Both the position numbers and the translations under genes were made by a program. A DNA stretch of 64,000 nucleotides from Bacteroidia bacterium (lineage in GTDB: Bacteria; Bacteroidota; Bacteroidia; JABEUT01), in the NCBI GenBank assembly GCA_035485295.1, contig DATHOD010000174.1, positions 3,704 through 67,703 on the forward strand, written 5' to 3'. Positions 38,251 through 58,752 of the stretch are shown here, one piece after another; within the stretch, counting starts at the first letter, position 1; each line of letters starts with the position of its first letter. A model generated the notes under the pieces. It was not told the DNA's origin and searched no databases. It saw only the letters and a program-made list of their open reading frames with translations.

Positions 38251-38520
38251 TCAAATCGTTGTTTCGTTATTCGAAGAACTTTGCTTCATATCTTCACGTT
38301 TAGCTTCACTAGCCATGTTAAGATATTCCTTGGCCAGCATTGCGCTTTCAGCTGCCTTTTCATAACTTCCTTGCTTAAGATAATTAGCGGCCTTGAAATG
38401 ATGAGTGGCGGCAGCCAGCAAATGCGAAGCTGTTGTTTTATGGGTTTCAATTATGGCCTGACTGTCTATATAAGGCAGGTGGTTGGTGTTATCTTCTATT
38501 AGTGCCATAGGATTCTTCAT
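38251..38520 (-). CDS. hypothetical 89-aa protein (module-associated). Start moved to the second ATG
   Basis: MKNPMALIEDNTN…; a module sits immediately upstream, which would place the promoter inside the longer track ORF. Confidence 0.45.
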   Translation of the reverse strand: MKNPMALIEDNTNHLPYIDSQAIIETHKTTASHLLAAATHHFKAANYLKQGSYEKAAESAMLAKEYLNMASEAKREDMKQSSSNNETTI

Positions 38521-38541
38521 TTTAGTTGTGTTTATCGGATG

Positions 38542-38597
38542 CAAAGATGCCTCCATAAAACCTGGCGGGCATTACATCTATCTATCAAAAGGTTACA
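38542..38597 (-). promoter_or_regulatory. bipartite module for the 38251 gene (minus strand)
   Basis: On the plus strand: CAAAG 38542-38546, CATTACA 38570-38576, GGTTACA 38591-38597; 21 and 23 nt spacings. Confidence 0.55.
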
Positions 38598-38650
38598 TCT
38601 TTCCTATTTGGGCAGAAGAATATAATCGTAAGCGCAAATCAAGATAAATG

Positions 38651-38706
38651 TGTAAGGTTATTCTGTGTATGTGTAACACTCTAAAGTGTTGTATGCACAA
38701 TCTTTG
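38651..38706 (+). promoter_or_regulatory. bipartite module for the SHOCT/Usp operon
   Basis: TGTAAGG 38651-38657, TGTAACA 38672-38678, N23, CTTTG 38702-38706. The spacer carries the palindrome AACACTCTAAAGTGTT. Confidence 0.55.
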
Positions 38707-38739
38707 TCTGGTAATTGATAAACCTTAAAGCAAAATATT

Positions 38740-38988
38740 ATGATTGACGGTAGCTATTTTTTGGGCATGCATATGGTTTGGTGGTTTGTATGGGCTGCAA
38801 TTATGTTTTGGATTTTTGCCACTCCATATAATATTCCTGGGCAACGGAAGAGAAAAGACCAAGACACTTCACTTGATATTTTGCAGAAGCGATTTGCATC
38901 AGGGCAGTTTTCAGCCGAAGAATACAAACGAAGGAAAGATACACTTAAAGAACATTTCATACTGGTAAACCAGATTACATATAAATAG
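38740..38988 (+). CDS. SHOCT-domain membrane protein
   Basis: N-terminal TM helix (W-rich); C-terminal LQKRFASGQFSAEEYKRRKDTL matches the SHOCT short C-terminal domain. Confidence 0.6.
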   Translation: MIDGSYFLGMHMVWWFVWAAIMFWIFATPYNIPGQRKRKDQDTSLDILQKRFASGQFSAEEYKRRKDTLKEHFILVNQITYK

Positions 38989-39076
38989 CACATGAGGCAA
39001 TAAGGCAGTTGGGAATGCTTTAGAACAGTTTTCAATTGCCGCTTCATTATACACTAACCTTTAAATCTTATTTAAA

Positions 39077-40024
39077 ATGAATAAAACAGAAATAAAACGG
39101 ATACTTATTCCGACCGATTTTTCCGATACGTCACTTAAAGCTATTGATCATGCCATATTTCTGGCAAAGCTTAAAAATGCAGAAGTAACATTATTGCATG
39201 TAATGGATGAAACTTCAAGGCAAGAAAACATAGCCGCAACCCCATTGAATTATGCTGAATATGTTGGAGCAGTTGAAATGCTGGCTCAAAGATATTCTGC
39301 CTTGGAAGAAAAGTGGGAAGAACATATCAATACATTAATGGCCCACCTGGTAAATAAGATACGTCATGAAGGAGTAGAGGAAGTAAATTCTATAATTGAA
39401 ACAGGTGATGTATATGTTGTAATTTGTGAGCAGGCAAAAAAATTAAACGCTGATATAATTGTTATGGGTACGCATGGCGTTAAAGGCTTCAGGGAATTTA
39501 CAGTTGGAAGTAACACTTATAGCGTAGTAAAACATGCTGAGTGCCCTGTTCTTAGTATTCAGAAGAAAGTTCCAATTGTCGCTTTTGCTAACATTCTTGT
39601 CCCTTTTAGCGATAAACCCCATTCAAGGGAAAGTGTAGACTATGCTGTAAGTATAGCTAAGGACTATGGAGCAACTATTCATTTATTGGGAATAGACACT
39701 GAGAAAACCGAAATGCACTTTGATAAAATAAAGAAAGAGGCAAACCAGATTATGGAGATAGCTGAGAAAGATGGTATAAAATGTACAAAAACGGTTATGC
39801 CTGCCTCGGATATAACAGAATTGATAATGAAGGAAGCTAAAATGAGTAATGCTGATTTAATAGTACTTGTATCAGATATGGATAAGATGAAAATGAGTGA
39901 ATATTTCACGGGGCCAGTTATACAGCAAATAGTGAATCACTCACCTATTCCGGTTATTAGTATAAAGCCACAGCCTAAGCACTATAGCCCTGTTGCTAAT
40001 TATCCTGAGCGGGTTACCTTCTAA
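39077..40024 (+). CDS. universal stress protein (tandem UspA domains)
   Basis: ILIPTDFSDTSLKAIDHAIFLAKL…LLHV…IVMGTHG and a second Usp repeat; 315 aa. Confidence 0.85.
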   Translation: MNKTEIKRILIPTDFSDTSLKAIDHAIFLAKLKNAEVTLLHVMDETSRQENIAATPLNYAEYVGAVEMLAQRYSALEEKWEEHINTLMAHLVNKIRHEGVEEVNSIIETGDVYVVICEQAKKLNADIIVMGTHGVKGFREFTVGSNTYSVVKHAECPVLSIQKKVPIVAFANILVPFSDKPHSRESVDYAVSIAKDYGATIHLLGIDTEKTEMHFDKIKKEANQIMEIAEKDGIKCTKTVMPASDITELIMKEAKMSNADLIVLVSDMDKMKMSEYFTGPVIQQIVNHSPIPVISIKPQPKHYSPVANYPERVTF

Positions 40025-40051
40025 ATAGATCTAAGCTTGGGATGTGTTATA

Positions 40052-40107
40052 TGTAAAACACTACTATGCAAATGTAACACTTCACCAACTGAAGTGCATC
40101 ACTTTTG
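40052..40107 (+). promoter_or_regulatory. bipartite module for the 40148 gene
   Basis: TGTAAAA 40052-40058, TGTAACA 40073-40079, N22, CTTTTG 40102-40107, then GTGGAAATTCATTCAC 40115-40130. Confidence 0.55.
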
Positions 40108-40147
40108 TTCCGTTGTGGAAATTCATTCACAGCTTAAAACAATAAAT

Positions 40148-40603
40148 ATGAAAAAGAGTAGATTGATAATTGGTGGCTTGCTGCTGATTCTTGCAGGAGT
40201 ATTACATGCACAAGTTGGCGTAAATATAGTAGTTGGAACTCCGCCAGCATGGGGCCCGGCTGAATCATCGGGAGTAAGGTTTTATTACCTGCCTGAAATT
40301 GAAGCATATTATGATGTAAACACATCAAATTATATCTATATGTCTGGAGGAAGATGGATACATGCTTCAAACTTACCACCTGCATATAGAAATTATGATT
40401 TATACGGAGGGTATAAGGTTATGCTTAACGGTTATCATGGCGAAAGGCCTTATGATAATTTCAGGGAACATCAAAGAAGCTACCCAAGAGGATACAATAA
40501 AGGGCATGGACAAAAGACATACGGAGAAAGACCAGGCAATAGAGGCGAACATGGAGAAGGTAATCATGGGCATGATGATAAAGACCATGGTGATCATAAA
40601 TAA
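40148..40603 (+). CDS. secreted Gly/His-rich small protein
   Basis: Signal peptide MKKSRLIIGGLLLILAGVLHAQ. C-terminal GHGQKTYGERPGNRGEHGEGNHGHDDKDHGDHK. The track start at 40037 would swallow the promoter module. Confidence 0.5.
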   Translation: MKKSRLIIGGLLLILAGVLHAQVGVNIVVGTPPAWGPAESSGVRFYYLPEIEAYYDVNTSNYIYMSGGRWIHASNLPPAYRNYDLYGGYKVMLNGYHGERPYDNFREHQRSYPRGYNKGHGQKTYGERPGNRGEHGEGNHGHDDKDHGDHK

Positions 40604-40898: not shown

Positions 40899-41561
40899 TT
40901 AGCTGATGTAAGCTTTTTGGTAGGTGAGTATCTTTTTAGAAAGCCTATAGCATCCTGAAGCAAAGAAAGGCGCACACAATACATCAATAGTATAGTGAAC
41001 ATGTTGTATTAATACAAGGATACCAATAGCTATTGCTGCTAAAAGCATGTAAACTCTGTCAGGTTTTTTTGACGAGCATAAATAGAATAGGAAAAGAGTA
41101 GCTGTATGGCCGGAATAAAACAGATCCCTGGTAATTGTTCTTGAACAATACATCATATCGCATACTGGGTCTTTAAGGTCTATCAAACCTATTGGTGCAC
41201 GTAACTCTGTTATGCTTATGGTTATTATACGTGTAATTAGTATAAGCACAAAACCAATAAGGTAAGTAATGAACATATTGGGATTAGTCAGGGATCGAAA
41301 GAAGAATAAGAGCATTACACTCGACATAAGGAAAGTAATTGGTACAGATGCATCCATTGCGGGAAGTACATTTAGTATCCAGTCGTTTAATACAATGCCA
41401 CCCGATCGATTTTGGTTATAACCTAAGAAGAAATAGGTAAGTACTAGCATAATTACCAGTGCGACCGAACCCAAAATCAGGTTCTTAACAAATACTTTAT
41501 TATGTACAGCACTATACCAATTTCGTTTAATTGGTAATGTATTCGTGTCATTTAAACTCAT
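40899..41561 (-). CDS. PAP2_C / sphingomyelin-synthase-like lipid phosphotransferase family membrane protein
   Basis: Six predicted TM helices with D3-like FYSGHTATLF and D4-like HVHYTIDVLCAPFF motifs (SGHT and HYTxDV of the SMS/IPC-synthase family). Confidence 0.5.
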   Translation of the reverse strand: MSLNDTNTLPIKRNWYSAVHNKVFVKNLILGSVALVIMLVLTYFFLGYNQNRSGGIVLNDWILNVLPAMDASVPITFLMSSVMLLFFFRSLTNPNMFITYLIGFVLILITRIITISITELRAPIGLIDLKDPVCDMMYCSRTITRDLFYSGHTATLFLFYLCSSKKPDRVYMLLAAIAIGILVLIQHVHYTIDVLCAPFFASGCYRLSKKILTYQKAYIS

Positions 41562-41675
41562 TGTAGTTTTTTTAAATTTAAAGTACCTACAAAGGTCTAT
41601 TCTTCAAGTCATGTAGATATTATACTTGAATGGGGAAATATTATATAAGTCACACATTAAACCTGATAAGATATG

Positions 41676-41731
41676 TGTAAGCTTATTCTATATCTGTGTA
41701 ATGCTTTGCCGGACAAATGCCTCCACCTTTG
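41676..41731 (+). promoter_or_regulatory. bipartite module for the 41770 gene
   Basis: TGTAAGC 41676-41682, TGTAATG 41697-41703, N23, CTTTG 41727-41731, then CGTAATTATTTATTAATAA. Confidence 0.55.
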
Positions 41732-41769: not shown

Positions 41770-41973
41770 ATGAAAACTAATGAAACCCTAAGCAAAAAGG
41801 AACAATCAGGCGATTCTTCCAAGAAACAATCCAATAGTTCATCTTCAGAGCAATCAACCAACACTCCTAAGAAACAATCAAGTGGAAATTCATCTGAGAA
41901 GTCTAATGACCCATCTAAGAAGCAGTCGAATAACAGCTCATCTGAAAAGGCGGGCCACTCTTCCAAAAAATAA
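41770..41973 (+). CDS. Ser/Lys-rich low-complexity hydrophilic protein (hydrophilin/LEA-like)
   Basis: 67 aa of imperfect SSKKQSN repeats. Chosen over the antisense ORF 41688..41966 because the module and a terminator flank it in the plus orientation. Confidence 0.45.
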   Translation: MKTNETLSKKEQSGDSSKKQSNSSSSEQSTNTPKKQSSGNSSEKSNDPSKKQSNNSSSEKAGHSSKK

Positions 41974-42092: not shown

Positions 42093-42524
42093 ATGAGCAA
42101 AGAAGTAGAATTAATTAAGAAGGAAGATAACGGAAAGAATACTTCTCCAGTCCTTCCAGCCCATTTAAAGAACTACCTGGTAGATATAGATGGCACAATA
42201 TGTGAGGATATACCTAATGAAGAACCTGAACGTATGATACTTGCAGCAGTATTTCCCGGCGCAGTAGACACCCTGAATAAATGGTATGATGAAGGGCATA
42301 TTATTACTTTTTTCACTTCACGTACCGAGCAACACCGTTTGGTAACCGAAGAATGGCTTAAAAAAAATGGATTTAAATATCATTCCCTTTTAGTAGGTAA
42401 ACCACGTGGTGGTAACTATACATGGATAGATAATGCACCTGTACAGATAATGAATATGAAAGAAGATTTCTGGAAATTCAATTTTAGTAAGAACAATGTC
42501 ATTGGTTATAAACTGCCGGCGTAA
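42093..42524 (+). CDS. small HAD-like phosphatase
   Basis: Motif I LVDIDGTICED (DxDGT), motif II FFTSRT, about 140 aa. Confidence 0.5.
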   Translation: MSKEVELIKKEDNGKNTSPVLPAHLKNYLVDIDGTICEDIPNEEPERMILAAVFPGAVDTLNKWYDEGHIITFFTSRTEQHRLVTEEWLKKNGFKYHSLLVGKPRGGNYTWIDNAPVQIMNMKEDFWKFNFSKNNVIGYKLPA

Positions 42525-42560
42525 TGAACTATAAACGACAATACTTAATATTTAATCATA

Positions 42561-43184
42561 ATGAAACATCTTTTCCCTCTTTTGCTATTCCTGGTTTTCA
42601 TCAGTTCAGGAGTCGTAGGTCAAGATTTGAGAAACCCTAATACAAAATTCCTAACCAAAAGAGGATATACATTCCCCGACTCCACTAAGAAATATGCTAT
42701 GTCGGGCAAAATAAGCCAGTGGCCTGATACTATGTACTATAATACTATGTATAGGGCTAAACTCATGGGTTCCCTAACTATTCCAATTACATTCAGTAGT
42801 ATTGAAATTAGTAATGGCAATGCTGTAGTAAGTCCAAATGTAAGTTTAGGACTTGGTTACACCTGGTTCTATGGTGACTTTGTATTTAATGAAGATGATA
42901 AGATGACTGTCTATCCAACTTTTTTCTTTGGAGTAATAGGTGATGCAGGTATAGAAAATAATTTCAGTCTAAACAAATTAGCTGGTTTTTTTGCCGGCGG
43001 ATTTGTGGGTATTGGAGCATTTACTTTATTCGGGGGCTATGATATTATTAATAAATATGCTTTAATTGGCTTAGGTGGCAGAGTAGACTTCTTTACCATT
43101 TCACAAAAGTTCCTTCATGTATTTGGCAAGGTTGAAGAGGTTAGAAAGCACAAATCGATTGCGTTACCTATTACCGGCGAATAG
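42561..43184 (+). CDS. secreted hypothetical protein
   Basis: Signal peptide MKHLFPLLLFLVFISSGVVGQ; alternating hydrophobic beta-strand-like segments. Confidence 0.4.
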   Translation: MKHLFPLLLFLVFISSGVVGQDLRNPNTKFLTKRGYTFPDSTKKYAMSGKISQWPDTMYYNTMYRAKLMGSLTIPITFSSIEISNGNAVVSPNVSLGLGYTWFYGDFVFNEDDKMTVYPTFFFGVIGDAGIENNFSLNKLAGFFAGGFVGIGAFTLFGGYDIINKYALIGLGGRVDFFTISQKFLHVFGKVEEVRKHKSIALPITGE

Positions 43185-43241
43185 GGCGTACTGAATATAA
43201 ATAAGATCGTCCGATTTAGAAACAATATTAAAACACATATT

Positions 43242-43487
43242 ATGTTACAAGTACACCCAGTAAGAACAGAAAAAGAACTGAATGAGGATATTTTAAGAAT
43301 AACACTATTGATACAGGATAAATATCCTGAGCTTTCAAAGTTTATAGGTGAAATGCCTGTTACTGTTCCCAATGCTAATGATACAGAATCAACTATTAAG
43401 AATCTGGAGAGTTACTATCATTCATTAAACTCATTATTATCGAACTATAACACTAGTCACGCAGAAGGGCTAAAGCTTAACGTGTGA
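43242..43487 (+). CDS. hypothetical 81-aa protein
   Basis: ORF only. Confidence 0.3.
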   Translation: MLQVHPVRTEKELNEDILRITLLIQDKYPELSKFIGEMPVTVPNANDTESTIKNLESYYHSLNSLLSNYNTSHAEGLKLNV

Positions 43488-43491
43488 TTAA

Positions 43492-43547
43492 TGTAAGGTT
43501 TTTCAATAAAAGTGTAATATCTAGAACAAGTTGAATATTCACCTTTG
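43492..43547 (+). promoter_or_regulatory. bipartite module for the 43574 gene
   Basis: TGTAAGG 43492-43498, TGTAATA 43513-43519 (21 bp apart), N23, CTTTG 43543-43547. Confidence 0.55.
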
Positions 43548-43878: not shown

Positions 43879-43917
43879 ATTTTCTATTACACCATCAGTG
43901 AGAAATTTGCAGATATG

Positions 43918-43973
43918 TGTAAACCTTTCCATTCAAACTGTAACAGCCACAGGGCTCAATCCACTGACTTTTG
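43918..43973 (+). promoter_or_regulatory. bipartite module for the 44011 gene
   Basis: TGTAAAC 43918-43924, TGTAACA 43939-43945, N22, CTTTTG 43968-43973, then CGTAATATTTATTAATAA. Confidence 0.55.
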
Positions 43974-46263: not shown

Positions 46264-46357
46264 GTAATAAAGTAGTAATCAACTTTTATGACAGGGCTGA
46301 TATAGAAATATATCGGCCCTGCTTCTTTTAAGTGAACTGGCTATTTATGAGAAGGAT

Positions 46358-46412
46358 GTAACATATTCCAATTGTTGTATAACATCCAAAGGACAGGGCA
46401 CATCTAATTTTG
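46358..46412 (+). promoter_or_regulatory. bipartite module (variant) for the 46452 OmpA-family gene
   Basis: TGTAACA 46358-46364, TGTATAACA 46376-46384, N23, TTTTG 46408-46412. Confidence 0.45.
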
Positions 46413-48755: not shown

Positions 48756-48801
48756 GGCGGAGATAAGACTTCTGGTATGAGAAGCCCTCCGCCGGTGGCG
48801 G
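48756..48801 (+). other. leader with mutually exclusive hairpins upstream of the ferritin gene
   Basis: GGCGGAG (48756-62) pairs with CTCCGCC (48787-93), with an inner CTTCT/AGAAG stem. Alternatively CCGCC-GGT-GGCGG (48789-48801). Confidence 0.3.
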
Positions 48802-48831
48802 CTTCAGAATAATAAGGCATAAATAAACAAC

Positions 48832-49383: not shown

Positions 49384-49386
49384 GTA

Positions 49387-49779: not shown

Positions 49780-49870
49780 TTATAAAAATAGAATATATGT
49801 GGTTTTGGACATGGTGGGGTATGTTAAGCGTTGCATTGGTTATTGTAGTAATAGGTAAGGCATTGCATAT

Positions 49871-52231
49871 ATGGAGGAAAAAGTAATGGAGAAGCTTGTA
49901 AGTGTGAGGCCTGCAAAATCGAAAAGAAAGAAAATACTTATTATACTAAGTAGTATTATCATTTTAATTCCAATCGTTATTATTATTTGTATTTCGCCAA
50001 TAACTAAATACTTGGTAGAAAAGTATAGTGTAAAGTATATTGGTAGGCAAGTTAAAATGGATTGGGCCTATGTAAATCCATTTACTGGATATGCTTACTT
50101 CAAGAATCTAAAAATAAATGAATTTGAAAGCGATAGCATATTTATATCTGCAAATGGTGCAAGTGCTACATTCAGTTTGCTTAAACTATTCTCAAGAACA
50201 TGCGAAATCACTCAAATTACATTAGATCAGCCAAACATTATAATTATAGAATCACAAAAGGATGTGAATTTTTATGACCTTATACAAAGGTTCAAGCCCA
50301 AGGACACAATAAGTACAAATTCTCCATTTCATGTTAATGTGCTAAATATGAAAATCGTTAATGGGGTTTTACGCTACCGCGATAACCGTGTACCCGTTAA
50401 TTATTCTGTAGTACACCTGGATATTGAGAGTCCGGGATTGCAATGGAATATGGACACCTTAGCTGCAAAGGTTTCTTTGTTATCGGGAAATGGTGCAGGG
50501 GGAATAAAGGGCCATATTACAATTAACCTAAAAACCCTTGATTATAAGCTTGATGCAGTTATAGATAAACTTGAATTAGAATTTCTTAATCAGTATCTTA
50601 AAACAATGTCTAATTATGGCAGTTTTAGGGCGAACCTTGATGCAGATATTAAAGCCAATGGTAGTTTTAAAGATGCTGAGAATATGGAAGCTAAAGGCCA
50701 GGTTGTAATAAGTGATTTTCATTTCGGCGAGGATTCAGAAAGGGATTTTGCTTCCTTTAAAAAGTTTACACTAAGGGTCAATGCGTTGAACCCTAAGAAT
50801 AAGGAATATTTAATTGATTCCGTATCACTAAGTCACCCATATTTCAAATTCGAGCAGTACGATTATTTGAATAATGTTGAGCGTATGTTTGAACAAAAGG
50901 GAGAGGCAGTGCAACAAGGGGTAGGGAAGTTCAACTTGATTGTAGCTATAGGTAATTATATAAAAGAATTGTCACAAAACTTTTTCAGGAGTAACTATAC
51001 GGTAACCCATTTGGCTGTTTATAATGGTGACTTTCTATATGATGATTTTTCGCTAAACGAGAAATTCGCTATAGCTGCTAACCCAGTATATATAAGAGCT
51101 GATTCTATAAAAAAGACTAATTCCAGGGTAAAAATATCCTTTAACACCGGTATTAAGCCTTATGGCTCTGGTACAATTAATCTAAGTGTTGATCCTCAGG
51201 ATAGCTCAGACTTTGATTTAAATTATAATCTTAAAAAAATACCTATTTCCATATTTAATCCCTACCTTATCGCATATACTTCCTTCCCATTAGATATGGG
51301 CACATTGGAACTTAATGGTACATGGAAAGTAAGAGAAGGGGTAATACAAAGCGATAACCACTTACTGGTTATTGATCCACGCATAGGACAGCGTGTAAAA
51401 AATAAAAACAACCACTGGCTTCCAATGCGACTGGCTATGTTTTTGATAAAGGAAGAAGATAACGTGATAGATTATCAAATACCGATCACAGGAAATTTGA
51501 AGAGCCCTTCTTTTCATCTTCATGAAGTGGTTATGGATATTATACGGAACATCTTCGTGAAACCTGCTACTTCGGTATATAGAACCGAAGTGAAAAACAG
51601 GGAAGATGAAATTGAACAATCTATGACTCTTAAATGGGAAACCCGGCAGTTTTCCTTATCAGGATACCAGAGAAGGTTTTTGGATAAAACGGAAAAATTT
51701 CTGGAAGAAAACCCCACTTCTTCGGTTCTCATATCGCCTGAGTTATATGAAGCAAAGGAGAAAGAAGGAATATTGTTCTACGAGGCTAAGAAGAAGTATT
51801 ATCTATCAATTAATCAGGGGGAAACCAGGCCATTCAGCGAAGATGACTCTGAACATGTAGAAAGAATGTCAATAAGGGACTCTATGTTTATACGTTATTT
51901 AAATAAGCACCTTACTCATGCTCTTGAGTTTACTTTACAAGATAAATGCGCTAGTCTTATAGGTGTAGCAGTGATTAATACTAAATTCAATCAGCTAACT
52001 AAGAATAGAAAGAATGCCTTTCTTTCTTATTTTAAGGATAAAGATGTTGGAACGCGAGTAAAATTCAGCCCCATTCAAAATAACATCCCATACAACGGCT
52101 TTTCGTATTATAAGATCGAATTCAAGGGTGAATTGCCTGACTACTTGATTAAAGCCTATGCAAAAATGGCTGAACTAAATACCAGGAGTCCCCGCGAAAA
52201 GTATAGCAAAGAGAGGAAAAGCATTTTGTAG
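49871..52231 (+). CDS. large N-terminally membrane-anchored protein, AsmA/DUF748-like (tentative)
   Basis: 786 aa; one N-terminal TM helix (ILIILSSIIILIPIVIIICI) and a long periplasmic beta-rich region. Family assignment is uncertain. Confidence 0.35.
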   Translation: MEEKVMEKLVSVRPAKSKRKKILIILSSIIILIPIVIIICISPITKYLVEKYSVKYIGRQVKMDWAYVNPFTGYAYFKNLKINEFESDSIFISANGASATFSLLKLFSRTCEITQITLDQPNIIIIESQKDVNFYDLIQRFKPKDTISTNSPFHVNVLNMKIVNGVLRYRDNRVPVNYSVVHLDIESPGLQWNMDTLAAKVSLLSGNGAGGIKGHITINLKTLDYKLDAVIDKLELEFLNQYLKTMSNYGSFRANLDADIKANGSFKDAENMEAKGQVVISDFHFGEDSERDFASFKKFTLRVNALNPKNKEYLIDSVSLSHPYFKFEQYDYLNNVERMFEQKGEAVQQGVGKFNLIVAIGNYIKELSQNFFRSNYTVTHLAVYNGDFLYDDFSLNEKFAIAANPVYIRADSIKKTNSRVKISFNTGIKPYGSGTINLSVDPQDSSDFDLNYNLKKIPISIFNPYLIAYTSFPLDMGTLELNGTWKVREGVIQSDNHLLVIDPRIGQRVKNKNNHWLPMRLAMFLIKEEDNVIDYQIPITGNLKSPSFHLHEVVMDIIRNIFVKPATSVYRTEVKNREDEIEQSMTLKWETRQFSLSGYQRRFLDKTEKFLEENPTSSVLISPELYEAKEKEGILFYEAKKKYYLSINQGETRPFSEDDSEHVERMSIRDSMFIRYLNKHLTHALEFTLQDKCASLIGVAVINTKFNQLTKNRKNAFLSYFKDKDVGTRVKFSPIQNNIPYNGFSYYKIEFKGELPDYLIKAYAKMAELNTRSPREKYSKERKSIL

Positions 52232-52236
52232 TTATT

Positions 52237-52292
52237 TGTAAGATTGGAGCATAATAGTGTAACACTTCTAAGAGTAGCTATTTCCAGCTTTG
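52237..52292 (+). promoter_or_regulatory. bipartite module for the 52334 gene
   Basis: TGTAAGA 52237-52243, TGTAACA 52258-52264 (21 bp apart), N23, CTTTG 52288-52292, then palindrome ATCGCAAATGCGAT before the ATG. Confidence 0.55.
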
Positions 52293-52333: not shown

Positions 52334-52894
52334 ATGAAAACTACACCATTAAACTTATCAGTTCTTGATAAGAACTCAATTATCATAGGTCCACTCAGTA
52401 CTTACCTTAACACCAGGTTCGGTGAAAGGATCAATATAACTCCATATTCAGATGCTGAACTATGCATGCAGTTTATTGACGATGACTCACATGTAATTAT
52501 CCTTGATTATTTTATAAATCATGAAGATAGAACCGGCACCAAAGGATTAAAGCTATTTGAAACAATGAAAAAGCGTAACCCAGGGAGTAAGATAACCATG
52601 CTAAGCTCAAGGGAAGATATTGATGTGGCTACCGAGGAGATGCAGCAAGGTGCCAGCAAATACATTATGAAGAACGAAAGGGGATTATACGATATAAGGT
52701 TTGTGCTGGATAAAGCTGTAAGGCCAATGAAAACAATCGTAATTCCGGTTATAACACTCCCAATAAGAAAACTAGTGCATTATTATAACTTGAAATCATA
52801 CCTAATGATGTTCCTTGTAGCATTTATATCTGTAGGTATCCTGGTAATTGCAGGGTACGTTGGCCTGAAATTCGCACACTTATTAAATATATAG
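52334..52894 (+). CDS. membrane-anchored pseudo-receiver (REC-like domain lacking the acidic pocket, with a C-terminal TM helix)
   Basis: VIILDYFINHEDRTGTKGLKLFETMKK…KITMLSSREDIDVA parallels the receiver at 36376 (VIILDYHLDG…VVMLSSQDKIDVA). N-terminus lacks the DD pair. C-terminus LMMFLVAFISVGILVIAGYVGL. Confidence 0.5.
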   Translation: MKTTPLNLSVLDKNSIIIGPLSTYLNTRFGERINITPYSDAELCMQFIDDDSHVIILDYFINHEDRTGTKGLKLFETMKKRNPGSKITMLSSREDIDVATEEMQQGASKYIMKNERGLYDIRFVLDKAVRPMKTIVIPVITLPIRKLVHYYNLKSYLMMFLVAFISVGILVIAGYVGLKFAHLLNI

Positions 52895-52912
52895 TCGAAT
52901 AATACAAAACAT

Positions 52913-52958
52913 TCTAACAATTGTATAATAATGCTAAGTGCGATGGTATCCAACTTTG
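52913..52958 (+). promoter_or_regulatory. bipartite module (variant) for the 52992 gene
   Basis: TGTATAATA 52923-52931, N22, CTTTG 52954-52958. Distal half-site weak. Confidence 0.35.
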
Positions 52959-52991: not shown

Positions 52992-53246
52992 ATGAACATT
53001 ATAACTTATGGCTTAACAGGCGCAGGGGTATTTGTACTCTTTATCATAATATACTCTTATATAGAGACCCATTATAAAAAGAAAACGTACAAGATGAAAC
53101 TGGAGGAAAGGTTAAAAAGCGAAATGGACACAGAGGAAGATTATCGCCACAAGCTATCTGATACAATACCTATCAGCAATGAGAAATCATTAAGCCATAA
53201 AGAAGATGCCCGTAAAGATGAAATAAAAACAGCGATAAAATTATAG
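52992..53246 (+). CDS. small membrane protein (N-terminal TM, charged tail)
   Basis: MNIITYGLTGAGVFVLFIIIYSYI then a K/E-rich tail. Confidence 0.4.
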   Translation: MNIITYGLTGAGVFVLFIIIYSYIETHYKKKTYKMKLEERLKSEMDTEEDYRHKLSDTIPISNEKSLSHKEDARKDEIKTAIKL

Positions 53247-53247
53247 A

Positions 53248-53303
53248 TGTAACATATACATAAGTATGTGTAACACTCTACCGGTTGAACTGCCACATCT
53301 TTG
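53248..53303 (+). promoter_or_regulatory. bipartite module for the 53343 CsbD-like gene
   Basis: TGTAACA 53248-53254, TGTAACA 53269-53275 (21 bp apart), N23, CTTTG 53299-53303, then CGTAATAATTTAATAATAC. Confidence 0.6.
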
Positions 53304-53342: not shown

Positions 53343-53633
53343 ATGGAAACAACTCAAAACAAAACTTCTGAAACAACTCAAAACAAGACTCCAGAAGCAA
53401 CTCAGAGCAAAACCCCGGAAGCAACCCAATCTACTGAATCATTTAAAGTGACCGGTAACTGGGCTACTAAATCACAAGAACTTAAGTCTCAATATTCAAC
53501 CCTTACCGATTCAGACGTAAAGTTTGAAACAGGTAAAGAAAGTGAACTATTAGGCAGGTTACAAACCAAGTTAGGTAAGAACCGTGAAGAGGTAATTGCT
53601 TTGATTAAGCAAACCGAAACTATACAAGCTTAA
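53343..53633 (+). CDS. CsbD-like stress protein with N-terminal ETTQNKT/EATQSKTP tandem repeats
   Basis: C-terminal half VTGNWATKSQELKSQYSTLTDSDVKFETGKESELLGRLQTKLGKNREEV has the CsbD pattern. N-terminal 8-aa repeats. Confidence 0.6.
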   Translation: METTQNKTSETTQNKTPEATQSKTPEATQSTESFKVTGNWATKSQELKSQYSTLTDSDVKFETGKESELLGRLQTKLGKNREEVIALIKQTETIQA

Positions 53634-53719: not shown

Positions 53720-53838
53720 ATAAAACTGAGATAATGATAAGAAAAAGATAAGGAGTTTAAAATATTCCTTTTTATCGGATACTCATAAAAGAGCGCTTAA
53801 TGGCGCTCTTTGCTTTTTAGGGAAGTTAGCAGGAATAG

Positions 53839-53894
53839 TGTAACCTAATCAGGCAATTATGTAACAATAGTAAGCCAGAGCTAATAGACCTTTG
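53839..53894 (+). promoter_or_regulatory. bipartite module for the 53934 gene
   Basis: TGTAACC 53839-53845, TGTAACA 53860-53866, N23, CTTTG 53890-53894, then GTGAAAATTCATTCA 53901-53915. Confidence 0.6.
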
Positions 53895-53933
53895 TGCGTT
53901 GTGAAAATTCATTCATAATCTAATTTACTAAAA

Positions 53934-54689
53934 ATGAAAAAGTTAAAATTAATATCAACTCTTGCCATCGCATCGGTTGTCTTACTGGCAGCATGTGCCA
54001 AGAGTGACACTTCACCTACCACAACTACTACTACACCACCAATTGTTATACCCGTTCAAACTACTATACAAGGATCTGTTTCTCTGGGTAGTTCAGCCAG
54101 TACCATGGTAGTTATTGCTGGTTCAACAGTTACAAGCACCGGGGCAACAAATATTACAGGTGACCTGGGATTAAGTCCAGGTACTGGATTAAGTGGATTC
54201 CCTCCCGGGATAATTAATGGAACAAAACACATTGATGATACTGCAGCCAGCCAGGCTAAACGTGATATAACAGCAGCCTATAACGATGCTGGCAGCCGCA
54301 CTTCTGCCGATATGGTAACACTTTCGGGAAATATTGGTGGGCTCACACTTACCCCTGGCCTTTATAAATCAACCTCTTCACTTGCTATATCATCAGGTAA
54401 CCTGACTTTTGATGCAAAAGGAAATGCAAATGCCGTCTTTATAATACAGATAGCTTCTTCATTAACTGTGACATCGGCACGCCAGGTAATTCTTGCTGGA
54501 GGAGCTTCAGCCGCAAATATATTTTGGCAGATTGGCAGTTCTGCTACTTTCGGAACTACTTCAGTAATGTATGGAACTGTATTGGTAATGCAATCTATTA
54601 CACTAAATACTGGGGCAACACTTAATGGCAGGGTATTTGCAAGAACCGGAGCGGTAGTAATGCAGGCAAATACTGTAACTAAGCAATAG
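53934..54689 (+). CDS. lipoprotein with DUF3494 ice-binding-like (IBP-1 fold) domain
   Basis: Lipobox LLAAC, poly-Thr linker. …[86 protein letters not shown] matches the DUF3494/IBP signature. Confidence 0.7.
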
Positions 54690-54731
54690 GTAATCTTGTT
54701 TTTATACAAAATGGGGTATATGTGTGAATAG

Positions 54732-54787
54732 TGTAATATATATGCACAGTTATGTAATACTTATAAGTGCTAAGGTAGGCACCTTTA
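54732..54787 (+). promoter_or_regulatory. bipartite module (box variant CCTTTAC) for the 54837 gene
   Basis: TGTGTGAATAGTGTAATA (TGTAATA 54732-54738), TGTAATA 54753-54759 (21 bp apart), N23, CTTTA 54783-54787. Confidence 0.5.
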
Positions 54788-54836: not shown

Positions 54837-56459
54837 ATGAAAAATAAACTATCTAATATGCTTACAGTTGCTATGCTACTGGTAATTCCTTCTCTTAGTT
54901 TTGCACAAGCACCAACGCTTGGTACAGCAGCTGATTTTGTTCTGTTTACTACTAACGGAGCAGTAAAGAATACTGGCACATCTCAACTTACAGGTAATGT
55001 AGGGACCAATAATGGATCTAACACAGGCTTCGGCAATGTAAATGGTGTTATGCACGCTAAAGATGCAGCAACTGCAAAATGCGATTCAAATGTACTGGTT
55101 GCTTATGGCCAATTAAAAGCTGATGTTCCTACTTTCTTTCCTTCTGCTTCAATGGGAAATGGGGATACACTTATACCAGGTGTTTATTCTATTGCTGCTG
55201 CTGCAACGTTGAATTTGAACCTTTATTTAAATGCAAAAGGGAATCCAAATGCAGTGTTTGTGTTTCAAATAGGTGGGCCGCTTTCAACCGGCGCATTATC
55301 TAAAGTAAAATTGATTAATGGTGCATTAGCATGTAATGTGTATTGGAAAGTAGAAGGCCTGGTAAGTATGGCTGCGGGTTCTACCATGCGCGGAACAATT
55401 ATTATAAACAATGCGGCTATTAATATGAACACTGGTGATACACTTGAAGGCAGAGCGCTTTCTATTGCAGGTGCAGTTACAGTAAGTGGAATACTTGCTT
55501 ACACCCCGATAGGTTGTAGTAGCCCTACGTTAACAGGCCCGGCGGCTCCAACGCTTGGTGCAGCAGGATGTTATGCAGTTTTTTCTACCGATGGCGCTGT
55601 AACTAATTCCGGAACAACACACTTAACCGGCGATGTAGGAACAAATGTAGGCCTAACCACAGGGTATAATGCAGTTGACGTAACTGGTACCATACATCCT
55701 AAACCGGATGGTTCAACTGCTGTTTGCGCGTCAGATCTGCTTTCTGCTTACAATTACCTTAATACTCTTCCATACGATATTGAATTATTGTATCCTGCCC
55801 AGTTTGGCCATAACCTGGTACTTACTCCTCATACGTATATTATGAAATCGGCAGTCACTTTTACCGATTCTCTTTATCTGAATGCTGAAAATGATCCGGC
55901 AGCCATATTTGTAATACAAGTAAACGGTGCTTTTGCTACCAGTACCTTTTCAAAGGTTATTTTAATAAATGGTGCACAGGCCGCAAACGTGTATTGGGTA
56001 ATAAATGGGGCAGTAAGTATTAACAAGTTCTCTACTTTTAATGGAACTGTTGTTTGCAATAACGGCGCAATTAACGTGGTTACCGGAGCTGTGATCAATG
56101 GCAGAGTTCTTACCACTAAGGGCCAGGTAACAACTGATACAATTACGGTTACAGCCTCAGCTATTCCGGGCAATTGTTCAACAGTAGGAATTCAGAATAT
56201 TAATGCAGATGATGAATCAGTTACTCTGTATCCTAACCCATTCAGGTCTTCTTTAGCTATTAAAATAAGCGACAATGCAATTCTAAATAATTGCAATTTG
56301 ACTATTTATAATGTACTTGGACAAGAAGTATTGAAAATGGATATTACCGAGCATTCAACTACTGTTGAAACAAGTAAGCTGATCTCGGGAATTTACTTTT
56401 ATAAGGTAATTGAGAATAACAATGTAATACAATCAGGCAAGTTGATATCACAACAGTAA
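54837..56459 (+). CDS. secreted protein with two tandem DUF3494 ice-binding-like domains and a T9SS C-terminal sorting domain
   Basis: Two repeats of …NAVFVFQIGGPLSTGALSKVKLINGALACNVYWKVEG… and …AIFVIQVNGAFATSTFSKVILINGAQAANVYWVINGAVS…GRVLTTKGQVT. CTD …VTLYPNPFRSSLAIKIS…GIYFYKVIENNNVIQSGKLISQQ. Confidence 0.7.
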   Translation: MKNKLSNMLTVAMLLVIPSLSFAQAPTLGTAADFVLFTTNGAVKNTGTSQLTGNVGTNNGSNTGFGNVNGVMHAKDAATAKCDSNVLVAYGQLKADVPTFFPSASMGNGDTLIPGVYSIAAAATLNLNLYLNAKGNPNAVFVFQIGGPLSTGALSKVKLINGALACNVYWKVEGLVSMAAGSTMRGTIIINNAAINMNTGDTLEGRALSIAGAVTVSGILAYTPIGCSSPTLTGPAAPTLGAAGCYAVFSTDGAVTNSGTTHLTGDVGTNVGLTTGYNAVDVTGTIHPKPDGSTAVCASDLLSAYNYLNTLPYDIELLYPAQFGHNLVLTPHTYIMKSAVTFTDSLYLNAENDPAAIFVIQVNGAFATSTFSKVILINGAQAANVYWVINGAVSINKFSTFNGTVVCNNGAINVVTGAVINGRVLTTKGQVTTDTITVTASAIPGNCSTVGIQNINADDESVTLYPNPFRSSLAIKISDNAILNNCNLTIYNVLGQEVLKMDITEHSTTVETSKLISGIYFYKVIENNNVIQSGKLISQQ

Positions 56460-56519: not shown

Positions 56520-56534
56520 TATCTACCTTATATA

Positions 56535-56590
56535 TATAACTATTACTTAAAGTTATGTAACAGCTGAAATAGCCTAAATACGCAGCTTTG
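56535..56590 (+). promoter_or_regulatory. bipartite module for the 56630 gene
   Basis: Proximal TGTAACA 56556-56562, N23, CTTTG 56586-56590, then GTGAAAATTATTTCACAC. Distal half-site weak (TATAAC 56535-40). Confidence 0.5.
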
Positions 56591-56629
56591 TATCGTCGTG
56601 AAAATTATTTCACACATAAAACAAAAATC

Positions 56630-57268
56630 ATGAAAAAGTTATTTATCGCAATAAGTTTATTGTCAATGTTCTTTGGAACAAGAGTAATGGCTCAGGATGG
56701 AACTGATCCAAGGGAAGATCTTACATTTGGTTTAAAGGTGGGAGCCAACTATTCTAATGTTTACGATGCACAAGGACAAAACTTTGTCGCAGACTCTAAA
56801 GTTGGTTTTGCAGGTGGGGTATTTTTAGGAATACCATTAGGCAAATATTTAGGTTTTCAACCTGAAGCCCTGATATCGCAAAAAGGATTCCAGGGATCAG
56901 GGATATTAGAAGATGAACCATACTCTTTTACCAGAACTACTACCTACCTGGATATTCCACTATTACTGCAATTAAAACTTACTCCATGCCTAACTATATT
57001 AGCAGGACCGCAATATTCTTACTTATTGAGTGAGAAGGATGTGTATACATATGGTGCAAATAGCGCTGCCCAGGAACAGGATTTTTCAAATGATAATATA
57101 CGGAAAAACATTTTTGGCTTTGTTGTTGGTGCTGATGTTAGCATTTCGCACTTCCTTATTTCAGGAAGAGCAGGCTGGGATTTGCAAACCAATAATGGTA
57201 ATGGCACTTCTTCTACGCCTCAATACAGAAATCAATGGTTACAATTAACTGTAGGCTTTAAGGTTTAA
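56630..57268 (+). CDS. outer membrane beta-barrel protein (porin-family / OmpW-like small barrel)
   Basis: Signal peptide MKKLFIAISLLSMFFGTRVMAQ; alternating amphipathic strands; C-terminal …WLQLTVGFKV ending in an aromatic residue. Confidence 0.7.
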   Translation: MKKLFIAISLLSMFFGTRVMAQDGTDPREDLTFGLKVGANYSNVYDAQGQNFVADSKVGFAGGVFLGIPLGKYLGFQPEALISQKGFQGSGILEDEPYSFTRTTTYLDIPLLLQLKLTPCLTILAGPQYSYLLSEKDVYTYGANSAAQEQDFSNDNIRKNIFGFVVGADVSISHFLISGRAGWDLQTNNGNGTSSTPQYRNQWLQLTVGFKV

Positions 57269-57330: not shown

Positions 57331-57358
57331 TGTAAGATATTCATCAAATCGGGATTTA

Positions 57359-57414
57359 TGTAATTAATCCCAATAGTTATGTAACACTTAAGGATAGCCG
57401 GATGTTCACTTTTG
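57359..57414 (+). promoter_or_regulatory. bipartite module for the 57460 gene
   Basis: TGTAATT 57359-57365, TGTAACA 57380-57386 (21 bp apart), N22, CTTTTG 57409-57414. Confidence 0.55.
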
Positions 57415-57459
57415 TACCATTGCAGAAATTCTTTTGTAATCGTTAATTAAAATCTAATA

Positions 57460-58041
57460 ATGAAAAAAATATTCCAACAACTCCTGGTACTAACGGCATC
57501 AACTGTATTGCTATCATCATGCGCTAATATTTCTAAATTATCACTAACAAAAAGGCACTACAGAAGCGGCTACTTTGTTGATTTTGGAAGTAGTAAGCAT
57601 ATTACACCTATTACTGTAATACACAGGAAGCCTCAAAATGAAACTTTAACCCCGGTAACGGCAAAATCTGCGCAACCAGTTGTAACAACTGCCGCAATAA
57701 TTGCAACCAATGAAGTAAACACAGCTCCTTCAAATATAGTCCCTAAGACAAAAAAGGTGAATGCAGCTAAAATAGCAAGTGCAAATGCGACAGCTCATGT
57801 AGCACTGGCAATTACGGCATCACCAACTACTTATGCGAAAGACGAATCAGACTTAGATCATCATACTCAGGTTGATGTTAATGTATCGTTTGTGGTTATT
57901 GTGCTTTGTGCCATATTTATACCACCACTTGGTGTAGCACTAATGTATGGTATTACTACTTATTTCTGGATCGACTTGATCTTAACACTGCTTTTTTTCT
58001 TCCCGGGAATGATATTCGCTCTGATAGTCGTTCTTAGTTAG
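57460..58041 (+). CDS. lipoprotein fused to a C-terminal YqaE/Pmp3 (UPF0057, RCI2-like) proteolipid domain
   Basis: Lipobox LLSSC. The last ~55 aa, IFIPPLGVALMYGITTYFWIDLILTLLFFFPGMIFALIVVL, match the Pmp3/RCI2 stress proteolipid family. Confidence 0.65.
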   Translation: MKKIFQQLLVLTASTVLLSSCANISKLSLTKRHYRSGYFVDFGSSKHITPITVIHRKPQNETLTPVTAKSAQPVVTTAAIIATNEVNTAPSNIVPKTKKVNAAKIASANATAHVALAITASPTTYAKDESDLDHHTQVDVNVSFVVIVLCAIFIPPLGVALMYGITTYFWIDLILTLLFFFPGMIFALIVVLS

Positions 58042-58080
58042 AAAGAATAAAATCATTAATCAAATAAATAATAAAACATC

Positions 58081-58233
58081 ATGGGAAATCTATTGTACGT
58101 AATAGCAGTAATACTAATCATTTGCTGGCTAATTGGCTTTGTAGGATACGGAGCAGGTGGGTTAATCCACATACTACTTGTAATTGCCATAATAGCTGTT
58201 ATTATGCGTGTAATTCAAGGTAAAAAACTATAA
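58081..58233 (+). CDS. lmo0937-family small membrane protein (50 aa, absent from ORF track)
   Basis: MGNLLYVIAVILIICWLIGFVGYGAGGLIHILLVIAIIAVIMRVIQGKKL, the characteristic two-helix pattern of this widespread small-protein family. Confidence 0.55.
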   Translation: MGNLLYVIAVILIICWLIGFVGYGAGGLIHILLVIAIIAVIMRVIQGKKL

Positions 58234-58257
58234 TCTAATATTCTAACAATAATATAT

Positions 58258-58524
58258 ATGGATATTTCAAATAACTCAGGAAAAATAATTGGCGCCTTAT
58301 TAATGGGAGCTGCAATTGGCGGTGTACTTGGAATTCTATTTGCTCCTGATAAAGGCAGCAAGACTAGAAGGAGAATAATTGGCAATGCAGAAGACATTAC
58401 CGATGCAATGCAGGATAAATTCAACGAATTTCTTGATGAGATAAAAGAAGAAGTTGAAGCCGTTAAGCTTAAGGCAGAGATTTTTATTGGAGACGGTACA
58501 CCTAAGAACCATAAACTAAAATAA
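58258..58524 (+). CDS. YtxH-domain protein
   Basis: IGALLMGAAIGGVLGILFAPDKGSKTRRRI then a helical acidic tail: the YtxH/DUF948 pattern. Confidence 0.65.
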   Translation: MDISNNSGKIIGALLMGAAIGGVLGILFAPDKGSKTRRRIIGNAEDITDAMQDKFNEFLDEIKEEVEAVKLKAEIFIGDGTPKNHKLK

Positions 58525-58537
58525 GAACATTAAGAAT

Positions 58538-58592
58538 GTAACTTATTTCGGATTATGTGTAATACTAAGCCGGAATCAAGTTACCACTTTTG
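58538..58592 (+). promoter_or_regulatory. bipartite module for the 58633 mini-gene
   Basis: TGTAACT 58538-58544, TGTAATA 58558-58564, N22, CTTTTG 58587-58592, then GTAGAAATTCATTAACA 58600-58616. Confidence 0.55.
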
Positions 58593-58632
58593 TATCGCTG
58601 TAGAAATTCATTAACAACATAAAACTAAAAAC

Positions 58633-58752
58633 ATGAAAAAGATAATTTTTATACTGGCCGTATTTATTGGCCTTTCAATGCAAGGTTGTTTTATTGGTAG
58701 GCCTCATGGCGGTGGCGACCATCATGAAGGACACCATGATGACAGGCACTAA
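58633..58752 (+). CDS. 39-aa His-rich lipopeptide-like mini-protein (absent from ORF track)
   Basis: MKKIIFILAVFIGLSMQGCFIGRPHGGGDHHEGHHDDRH; signal and lipobox (MQGC). Full module and GTAGAAATTCATTAACA element 17 nt upstream of the ATG. Confidence 0.4.
   Translation: MKKIIFILAVFIGLSMQGCFIGRPHGGGDHHEGHHDDRH

Follow-up and report, generated by a model that had tools for sequence, protein, structure and literature searches.

The window analysed here, 64,000 nucleotides of Bacteroidia contig DATHOD010000174.1 (assembly GCA_035485295.1), carries at positions 38251-58752 a dense series of small stress- and envelope-type genes, most of them preceded by the same ~70-bp promoter module. Of the 22 copies that a matrix scan detects in the window, 16 fall inside the interval and six further left, and one copy stands directly before an operon encoding an AraC/XylS-family protein, a hybrid histidine kinase and a single-domain receiver (here the triad). 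In combination, these features probably describe an autoregulated class II AraC-type activator regulon for stress or dormancy protection, whose target promoters would fill some 49 kb (about 9.9-58.8 kb), the interval making up the two-fifths at the right-hand end.

The module was derived by aligning the 150 nt upstream of every gene. Most units share two TGTAA(C) boxes exactly 21 nt apart, followed after exactly 24 nt by (C/T)TTTG, and the full consensus reads AATGTGTGAAT-n-ATGTAAC / N10 / AATTrTGTAAC / N21 / CAyCTTTG. When the matrix was built from other genomes only, 20 window sites scored above 10 bits, while 50 Markov shuffles yielded none (maximum 3.9 bits). The initial annotation, made from this sequence, had held that nearly every transcription unit of the interval has its own module and its own intrinsic terminator; the module is strongly borne out by these counts, whereas clear terminators were found for about 9-10 units and thus not for nearly every one. 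Likewise, the proposed clustering of a single regulon holds, but not its boundaries, since the module also occurs at 9.9-11.9 kb and 19-36.8 kb and the regulator operon itself (33.5-36.8 kb) lies 1.5 kb to the left of the start then assigned. For most of 264 module sites an open reading frame (ORF) starts 55-90 nt downstream on the same strand, as expected of a promoter.

In a flavobacterial map of transcription start sites (TSS) the element TAnnTTTG spans -12 to -5 (PMC9723704), and the TSS is therefore predicted 5 nt after the G of CTTTG, at about 33539 for the regulator operon. On this scale the proximal TGTAAC occupies -41 to -36, the distal one -62 to -57 and the GTGTGAAT box approximately -70 to -63. 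The distal site (GTGTGAAT-n-ATGTAAC) is strong and the proximal site, 21 bp downstream (AATTrTGTAAC), is weaker; the centres of GTGTGA and TGTAAC are separated by 10 bp. The module promoters contain no -33 TTG element, and their -7 box is sub-optimal, CAyCTTTG in place of the TAnnTTTG of Bacteroidota sigma-A. A MarA-type double helix-turn-helix (HTH) domain reads two adjacent major grooves with such a 10-bp geometry, and a strong distal plus a weak proximal direct repeat at 21 bp, the proximal one abutting the -35 region, is the arrangement of araI1-I2; class II site geometry of the AraC family is known from araI, rhaS and melR. The direct-repeat geometry, together with the weak promoter (CA for TA, no -33 TTG), points to class II activation with the housekeeping sigma factor.

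The regulator carries the C-terminal two-HTH domain that defines the AraC/XylS family. Its AlphaFold2 (AF2) model, computed on the full 193 aa (predicted local distance difference test score, pLDDT, 85), shows an N-terminal beta-alpha-beta-beta-alpha-beta domain (residues 2-62) joined through a long linker helix to a canonical AraC double-HTH DNA-binding domain, the latter with Foldseek matches to AraT, YesN, AdpA, MarA, SoxS and AraC. The recognition helices are invariant across the alignment, as is the DNA motif. Translation starts at a conserved TTG/ATG seven codons upstream of 'MVSNRC', and a loop of the N-terminal domain bears a near-invariant Arg-Cys. Public gene calls differ (186 vs 193 aa), the truncated form losing the first beta-strand MKLxIKY (pLDDT 78 vs 85). 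An HMA domain was considered for the N-terminus and rejected: topology and 'MVSNRC' position are alike, but there is no Pfam HMA match. A STAS match in Pfam was insignificant (E = 0.047). The hybrid kinase opens with tandem coiled-coil repeats, ANKELAFQ..EK.KRA.EL, ahead of its PAS domain (34160-34420).

As the regulator operon itself bears the module, autoregulation is indicated at the level of sequence. The AraC/XylS-family protein would be the activator, two copies of which would sit on the tandem direct repeats, each double-HTH domain reading two boxes one helical turn apart, with the proximal copy overlapping the -35 region and recruiting RNA polymerase as at araI1-I2. The kinase may relay phosphate to the co-transcribed receiver, a step suggested by operon conservation only, and this 142-aa receiver is the proposed terminal phospho-acceptor. 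Either the receiver, or a ligand or redox signal at the near-invariant Cys, could then switch the regulator via its ferredoxin-like N-terminal domain. A 5' stem-loop (GUGAA-AAUUCA-UUCAC) would probably stabilise a subset of the mRNAs, and the regulon as a whole would build a protected, low-activity cell state.

Conservation was assessed in 80 genome loci centred on orthologues of the AraC protein (1.25 Mb) and, independently of the regulator, in at least 120 metagenome loci seeded by an exact 22-base module pattern. Over 8000 relatives of the regulator are present in the databases; identity is 73-100% for the best 120, which belong to Flavobacteriales, Chitinophagales, Cytophagales, Saprospirales, environmental Bacteroidales and metagenome-assembled genomes labelled Ignavibacteria. 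Across Bacteroidota orders the regulator remains 72-80% identical, and it is followed by a kinase orthologue in 71 of the 80 loci (median identity 72%) and accompanied by the receiver in 68 (median identity 76%). The window-derived matrix retrieves 252 modules around the 80 orthologues and none in shuffled sequence, with the logo AAtGTGTGAATkATGTAACTTwTT…rAATTrTGTAACAc–N21–CAyCTTTG. Although the GTGTGAAT box contributes little to that search matrix, no element of the 252-site logo is better conserved. In at least 55 of the 80 loci a module lies ~90 nt upstream of the regulator gene, and the loci scored as misses, several Flavobacterium species among them, bear degenerate copies. Lineages differ in how many modules surround the regulator (±10 kb), with 9-11 in some Chitinophagaceae and 0-3 in Flavobacterium.

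The same gene families recur behind these modules. Given as regulator loci/metagenome loci, the occurrences are: the regulator itself, 55/17; DUF3494, 28 genes in 17 loci/10; CsbD-like, 26 in 22 loci/12; 61-aa membrane protein, 10/2; receiver-transmembrane (TM) protein, 9/–; DUF6272-like, 9/6; histidine kinases, 7/7; cupin, 7/4; 89-aa helical protein, 7/1; OmpA-family, 6/11; Gly/His family, 6/5; YtxH, 5/5; DUF5670, 2/15; and Usp, –/2. Apart from the regulator, no family turns up behind a module more often than DUF3494, which counts 38 such copies over both sets; the Gly/His and receiver-TM families are module-driven in 10 and 8 other loci, respectively. The regulator-independent metagenome scan recovered the same cargo families, and conservation of the cargo does not depend on a position next to the regulator. 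The initial annotation had staked its reading on conservation and a shared motif in related genomes, and both are present in the 80 genome and at least 120 metagenome loci. Its further question, whether the island is syntenic, is answered in the negative: in the relatives examined gene order is not kept and only the families and the module recur, so that synteny of the whole island is ruled out. Even the closest relative (L003, regulator 80% identical) has DUF3494 and CsbD genes where the window has others.

An alternative in which an unlinked regulator other than the AraC protein binds the module, with the AraC-kinase-receiver operon as just one target among others, is unlikely, although it remains the most serious competitor. 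Autoregulation and target status look alike at the sequence level, and modules are also found on contigs without an AraC gene. However, the AraC protein is the sole DNA-binding protein of the conserved operon, the adjacency of module and regulator is kept across orders, direct repeats at 21 bp overlapping the -35 region are an AraC-family signature, and the invariance of the protein parallels that of the site. A LytTR-type regulator, suggested by 9-bp repeats with a 21-bp period, was also considered; no LytTR gene occurs in the window or the conserved operon, and the idea was dropped because it is an AraC gene that follows the autoregulatory module copy. Decidedly less probable is that the module is the promoter of an alternative sigma factor of the extracytoplasmic function (ECF) type, comparable to sigma-B, RpoS or EcfG. 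The cargo does resemble the regulons of those factors, and the GTAAC-like element with a CG(T) soon after the -7 box recalls ECF motifs, but the 24 nt separating GTAAC from CTTTG exceed what an ECF -35/-10 pair allows, and the downstream element is a sigma-A-type -7 box at sigma-A distance (PMC9723704). Moreover, a second repeat exactly 21 bp upstream and the GTGTGAAT box are present, and no sigma-factor gene was found among the Pfam-annotated window genes or in the conserved operon.

Part of the module-bearing units share a further element. A hairpin GTGAA-AATTCA-TTCAC (5 bp, 6-nt loop) opens ~15% of units. It starts at +38 in 35 of 252 genome-locus and 13 of 193 metagenome sites, other registers being used 0-3 times; +38 is the predicted first transcribed base. 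A further 11 genome-locus and 2 metagenome hairpins start at +41 with extra outer pairs. The stem varies in a compensatory manner (GTGAA/TTCAC, GTAAC/GTTAC, GTGAT/GTCAC, CGGGA/TCCCG, GCAGA/TTTGT) while the loop AATT(C/A)A is kept, and compensatory stem changes are also present in the window hairpin at 57419-57440. Among single non-Watson-Crick pairs, G·T outnumbers A·C by 17 to 3, against a background of 29:21, and this excess argues for pairing of the sense-strand RNA rather than for a DNA operator. The reading of GTGAA-N6-TTCAC as a CRP/FNR-like operator or an AraC half-site is correspondingly disfavoured by the stem covariation within one genome and the 17:3 mismatches. The hairpin is moderately enriched before exported proteins (42/65 vs 168/373, p = 0.0045). 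It is probably a 5'-terminal stabiliser of the mRNA; the conserved loop may instead bind a protein. The hairpin is also seen at many other loci, e.g. L003, L010, L055 and L061.

That the island was acquired horizontally, as a genomic or fitness island, is very improbable. Its GC content is slightly below that of the flanks, it holds many small orphan ORFs and its content varies between relatives. The comparison of codon usage and GC with the flanks, proposed in the initial annotation, nevertheless gave slight differences only (GC 0.377 in the interval vs 0.396; GC at third codon positions, GC3, 0.30 vs 0.33; mean difference in relative synonymous codon usage fraction from the rest of the window, 0.04) and no sign of a discrete acquired island. 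No integrase or transposase was found among the annotated window genes, there are no flanking repeats, the only tRNA lies at 9660-9731, and both regulator and motif have been retained by vertical descent throughout the phylum. A dispersed repeat resembling miniature inverted-repeat transposable or repetitive extragenic palindromic elements, or a coincidental clustering of small ORFs, would account for the many ~70-bp copies in intergenic DNA but is scarcely credible, as only functional positions are conserved, at fixed spacing, the element lies on the coding strand 55-90 nt before gene starts at most sites, it is kept across orders before the same families, and it has no terminal inverted repeats.

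Several observations weigh against the activator regulon proposed here. The link between regulator and module is one of guilt by association. The N-terminal domain of the regulator has no significant Pfam match, and for lack of a family match the signalling step is conjecture. Some island genes are without a module of their own, namely the HAD-207-81 aa group, a 56-aa ORF and ferritin/REC/DUF748. For the unit at 42093..43487 (HAD/LNS2-like, 207-aa and 81-aa proteins), before which no module was detected, regulon membership is uncertain. The CsbD, ferritin, receiver (REC) and DUF748 genes (48531-52231) are possibly co-transcribed with the OmpA-family gene, the sole basis being that they have no separate modules. 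Furthermore, clusters of Pmp3, PAP2, OmpA and DUF748 genes occur in three other genomes without the module. Neighbourhoods of the Pmp3 fusion elsewhere include three PAP2 genes, DUF3943, OmpA, Ku-LigD, BrkB, DUF748, a PAP2_C + LNS2-HAD pair and a Gly/His homologue, the PAP2_C + LNS2-HAD pair standing beside a Pmp3 homologue in L205. Such module-less neighbourhoods suggest that the functional grouping is older or wider than this control system.

Two of these neighbourhoods show features of their own: L203:3100-3305 and L204:11390-11586 share another upstream sequence, ATTAATCGAATAAT...GTAGTAATTTTG, and in L204 a LytTR regulator and kinases adjoin the Pmp3-fusion neighbourhood.

A further point against a regulon of general stress protection comes from Flavobacterium psychrophilum, in which THC0290_1150-1153 form an operon laid out like that of the triad, with genes for a 179-aa AraC protein, a hybrid kinase and a 144-aa receiver and a small ORF after the first (PMC9723704 Table S4). 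These genes and at least 34 of their neighbours are among only 103 coding sequences that are weakly expressed in all 32 conditions of a dataset of 64 samples, which covers growth phases including stationary phase, 0.75% NaCl, peroxide, hypoxia, iron limitation, freshwater, mucus and plasma (PMC9723704). The weakly expressed neighbours encode UspA, outer-membrane and peptidoglycan-binding proteins, a GH130-like glycosidase, an RNase BN/BrkB-like protein and phospholipase D (PMC9723704), and the ~75-kb block THC0290_1129-1210, which contains this operon, accounts for about a third of all genes weakly expressed in every condition (PMC9723704 Table S4). From synteny and sizes only, THC0290_1150-1153 appear orthologous to the triad; the Flavobacterium locus L046 of our set encodes an AraC protein, a 1076-aa kinase and a 144-aa receiver, and F. 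psychrophilum is not among the best 120 regulator homologues. If the genes are orthologous, their silence argues against a classical 'general' stress response, and the trigger would not be a classical stress, with freezing, desiccation or another dormancy cue as the leading guess. The cargo appears to point towards low water activity, freezing, desiccation or deep starvation, and the desiccation, cold or osmotic reading of the initial annotation seems to fit DUF3494, Pmp3, CsbD, YtxH, ferritin and the cyclic-glucan synthase described below.

Each ingredient of the proposed system, class II activation by an AraC-family protein, a phosphorelay and a stress regulon, is of a known kind, and its distinctive traits are the phylum-wide conservation and the invariant promoter architecture. 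With AraC at araI1-I2, RhaS/RhaR, MelR and XylS it shares the double-HTH domain, asymmetric 21-bp direct repeats, a proximal site over the -35 region and autoregulation. It differs from these activators in its ~75-aa ferredoxin-like N-terminal domain, in place of a cupin or sugar-binding domain, in the phosphorelay link and the dozens of stress-type genes in place of a catabolic operon, and in the Bacteroidota -33/-7 promoter type and an identity above 70% across the phylum. The hybrid two-component systems (HTCS) of Bacteroides have the same set of HisKA, HATPase, REC and AraC-type HTH domains and belong to the same phylum. Unlike in an HTCS, which is a single polypeptide, these domains are here distributed over three separate proteins, the kinase lacking an HTH and the regulator a REC domain, and a cytoplasmic PAS kinase without periplasmic sensor stands beside stress genes rather than polysaccharide utilisation loci.

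The cargo is similar to that of sigma-B of Bacillus and Listeria, RpoS of E. coli and PhyR-NepR-EcfG of Alphaproteobacteria (CsbD/YjbJ, YtxH, lmo0937-type, Pmp3/YqaE, Usp, ferritin/Dps-like and OmpA/OsmY-like proteins), with secreted DUF3494 proteins, enzymes acting on membrane lipids and, in the present organism, cyclic-glucan synthesis in addition; the transketolase and transaldolase genes of the window may be compared with the RpoS-dependent talA-tktB, and the EcfG and B. cereus RsbKY systems likewise use kinases and single-domain receivers. In contrast to those systems, an activator would here act on a housekeeping-type promoter with no alternative sigma factor, and targets are clustered beside the regulator. 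The E. coli acid fitness island (GadX/GadW, gadE, hdeAB, slp) is similarly a clustered stress regulon with its own AraC regulators and small envelope proteins, but it is confined to enterobacteria, whereas the present system has other proteins, another motif and another signal and is phylum-wide. The hairpin resembles those at the first transcribed nucleotides of the E. coli ompA 5' untranslated region and the B. subtilis aprE and ermC leaders, with the differences that the TSS is here predicted and that the conserved loop AAUU(C/A)A suggests a specific binding partner.

Bacteroidota are not known to possess RpoS, sigma-B or EcfG, and the searchable literature yielded no master regulator described for their stress protection; the present system could fill this gap. 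As a tentative proposal, possible though held with less confidence than the activator regulon itself, the triad and the invariant 70-bp module would constitute a so-far unidentified master switch of stress or dormancy protection in Bacteroidota and neighbouring lineages of the Fibrobacteres-Chlorobi-Bacteroidetes (FCB) group. Its function would match that of RpoS, sigma-B or EcfG, yet it would use a class II activator together with the housekeeping sigma factor and add the hairpin as a post-transcriptional layer. Standard laboratory stress panels would not include the cue that triggers it (freezing, desiccation or another signal of low water activity or dormancy). No known RNA family was matched, the Rfam scan of the whole window returning only the tRNA at 9660-9731; the NCBIfam scan gave no match to a specific NCBIfam family, and no published description of such a system was found in the searchable literature.

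The result yields a candidate regulator, a motif that predicts regulon members in genomes and metagenomes, and a conserved signalling triad. Numerous small proteins so far annotated as 'hypothetical' are placed in a regulatory context, secreted DUF3494 proteins and cyclic-glucan synthesis are tied to one programme, and a possible explanation emerges for the gene block that a large flavobacterial transcriptome study found silent under every condition. The compact activator-dependent promoter and the 5' hairpin could also serve as expression parts for Bacteroidota.

The gene content of the interval was checked by ORF listing and Pfam/NCBIfam scans (Table 1). It comprises 27 ORF-level genes with a median length of 143 aa and a coding fraction of 85%, all but two on the + strand, which confirms the dense packing with small proteins noted in the initial annotation. 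The SHOCT, tandem Usp, ferritin, OmpA, PAP2_C, DUF748, receiver, DUF5670 and YtxH assignments made there are supported by Pfam, and the low-complexity ORFs at 41770, 43574, 40148 and 58633 are present, every one behind its own module. Other assignments required revision. The label 'hydrophilin-like' fails, as all four peptides computed fall outside the formal rule (Gly >6%, grand average of hydropathy, GRAVY, below -1): the Ser/Lys-rich 67-aa protein has a GRAVY of -2.06 and 4% Gly, the repeat-extended CsbD protein -1.08 and 4%, the Lys/Thr-rich peptide -0.99 and 4%, and the Gly/His-rich protein -0.85 and 15%. The peptides are hydrophilic and of low complexity, yet outside the formal definition. 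The Pmp3 domain is indeed fused to a lipoprotein, but the fusion is not unique, with ~90 clusters of full-length homologues at 31-68% identity. Similarly, the repeat-extended CsbD gene at 53343 is present, while only one canonical CsbD (48531) rather than two lies within the interval. The barrel described as OmpW-like belongs to PF13568 and not to the OmpW family. The earlier gene list, otherwise sound, also omitted the two DUF3494 genes, the HAD/LNS2-like phosphatase at 42093 and the type IX secretion system (T9SS) protein at 44011-46263. For the DUF3494 pair the domain match is strong and ice-binding activity is putative. The 39-aa His-rich ORF was missed by the gene caller on the identical ENA contig; small His/Arg-rich lipoproteins also lie behind modules at other loci, e.g. 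L005_13080 and L045_13931.

Table 1. Genes of the promoter-module neighbourhood, with the modules and 5' hairpins that precede them (window coordinates; modules lie on the strand of the gene; ditto, same unit as the line above)
Gene product	Coordinates	Strand	Module (bits)	5' hairpin	Remarks
146-aa coiled-coil lipoprotein	9954-10394	-	10433..10501	10413-10428
OmpA-domain lipoprotein	10670-11458	-	11491..11559	11471-11486
67-aa CsbD-like protein	11714-11917	+	11608..11676
2896-aa GT2+GH94 protein	19250-27940	-	tkt operon		GT2 at 635-858, two GH94 supersandwich stretches, GH94 catalytic domain
Phosphoglucomutase	27937-29595	-	tkt operon		Pfam
rpiB	29598-30074	-	tkt operon		Pfam
tkt	30067-32157	-	32178..32246 (45.5)		Pfam; module among strongest
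81-aa protein	33213-33458	+	33107..33175 (40.3)
AraC/XylS-family regulator, 193 aa	33559..34140	+	33466..33534 (48.5)		TTG start; PF12833 8e-16, PF00165 5e-9; autoregulatory module with GTGTGAAT, two TGTAA boxes and -7 box
Hybrid histidine kinase, cytoplasmic	34160..36379	+	ditto		Coiled coil, PAS, HisKA, HATPase, REC, weak HPt (Pfam)
Single-domain receiver, 142 aa	36376..36804	+	ditto		PF00072; C-terminal helical tail
Helical 89-aa protein	38251-38520	-	38542..38610 (33)		Start corrected to 38520
SHOCT membrane protein	38740-38988	+	38638..38706		Pfam, weak match
Tandem-Usp protein	39077-40024	+	ditto		Pfam
Secreted Gly/His-rich protein	40148-40603	+	40039..40133 (with hairpin)	40112-40133
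PAP2_C lipid phosphotransferase-like protein	40899-41561	-	41590..41658 (30.9)		Pfam
Ser/Lys-rich 67-aa protein	41770-41973	+	41663..41731		Terminator follows
HAD/LNS2-like phosphatase	42093-42524	+
207-aa protein	42561-43184	+
81-aa protein	43242-43487	+
Secreted Lys/Thr-rich 83-aa protein	43574-43825	+	43479..43547 (41.4)		Terminator follows
750-aa T9SS-secreted protein	44011-46263	+	43905..43973		Module without GTGTGAAT box; start corrected to 44011; terminator follows
OmpA-family protein with N-terminal barrel	46452-48482	+	46344..46412 (29.8)		Pfam OmpA + OMP_b-brl_2; weaker module
CsbD, canonical	48531-48716	+			PF05532, 51.5 bits vs cut-off 40
Ferritin	48832-49383	+			Pfam
Stand-alone receiver (REC)	49387-49779	+			Pfam
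DUF748 protein	49871-52231	+			Pfam
Membrane-anchored receiver-like protein	52334-52894	+	52224..52292		Weak REC, C-terminal TM segment; module without GTGTGAAT box; start corrected to 52334
84-aa membrane protein	52992-53246	+	52890..52958 (21.4)		Weak module
CsbD-like protein with N-terminal repeat extension	53343-53633	+	53235..53303		Pfam 16 bits (sub-threshold); NCBIfam PRK10428 2e-6; terminator follows
DUF3494 ice-binding-like lipoprotein	53934-54689	+	53826..53919 (with hairpin)	53898-53919	PF11999 at 4.9e-62
Double-DUF3494 protein with T9SS tail	54837-56459	+	54719..54787 (54.3)		PF11999 at 3.6e-76; terminator follows
OMP_b-brl_2 outer-membrane barrel	56630-57268	+	56522..56613 (with hairpin)	56598-56613	PF13568; terminator follows
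Lipoprotein-Pmp3, 193 aa	57460-58041	+	57346..57440 (with hairpin; 38.1)	57419-57440	PF01679 at residues 146-191, 48 bits
DUF5670 (lmo0937-like)	58081-58233	+	ditto		Pfam
YtxH	58258-58524	+	ditto		Pfam
39-aa His-rich lipoprotein	58633-58752	+	58524..58592		Hairpin-like leader; terminator follows

To the left of the regulator, the tkt, rpiB, phosphoglucomutase and GT2+GH94 genes overlap or abut and form a tight operon. By architecture alone, the 2896-aa product is a putative cyclic beta-1,2-glucan synthase of the Cgs/NdvB/ChvB type, an enzyme that is, to our knowledge, unusual for Bacteroidota. The 67-aa CsbD-like ORF at 11714-11917 groups with CsbD-like proteins by BLAST only. It is followed by a complete oxidative pentose-phosphate operon (12028-19223) encoding a fused transaldolase-PGI (958 aa), HAD, gnd, zwf and pgl, and a terminator-like hairpin with a T-run separates the two. 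With the CsbD-like ORF and the terminator-like hairpin intervening after the module at 11643, this operon is at most a possible target, which read-through might bring under the module; the tkt operon, by contrast, has a strong module of its own.

Between the tkt promoter and the regulator region lies a gene for a 144-aa bacterial SET-domain protein (32497-32931), upstream of which no module was detected. A SiaC-family regulatory phosphoprotein is encoded beside a DUF6272 protein at 6536-7477 (-), which suggests a SiaB/SiaC-like partner-switch pair. The right flank (58821-63865), in which the module is absent, carries envelope-lipid functions, with an AI-2E family transporter, an MlaE/MlaF/MlaD operon for lipid transport and two PAP2 phosphatases.

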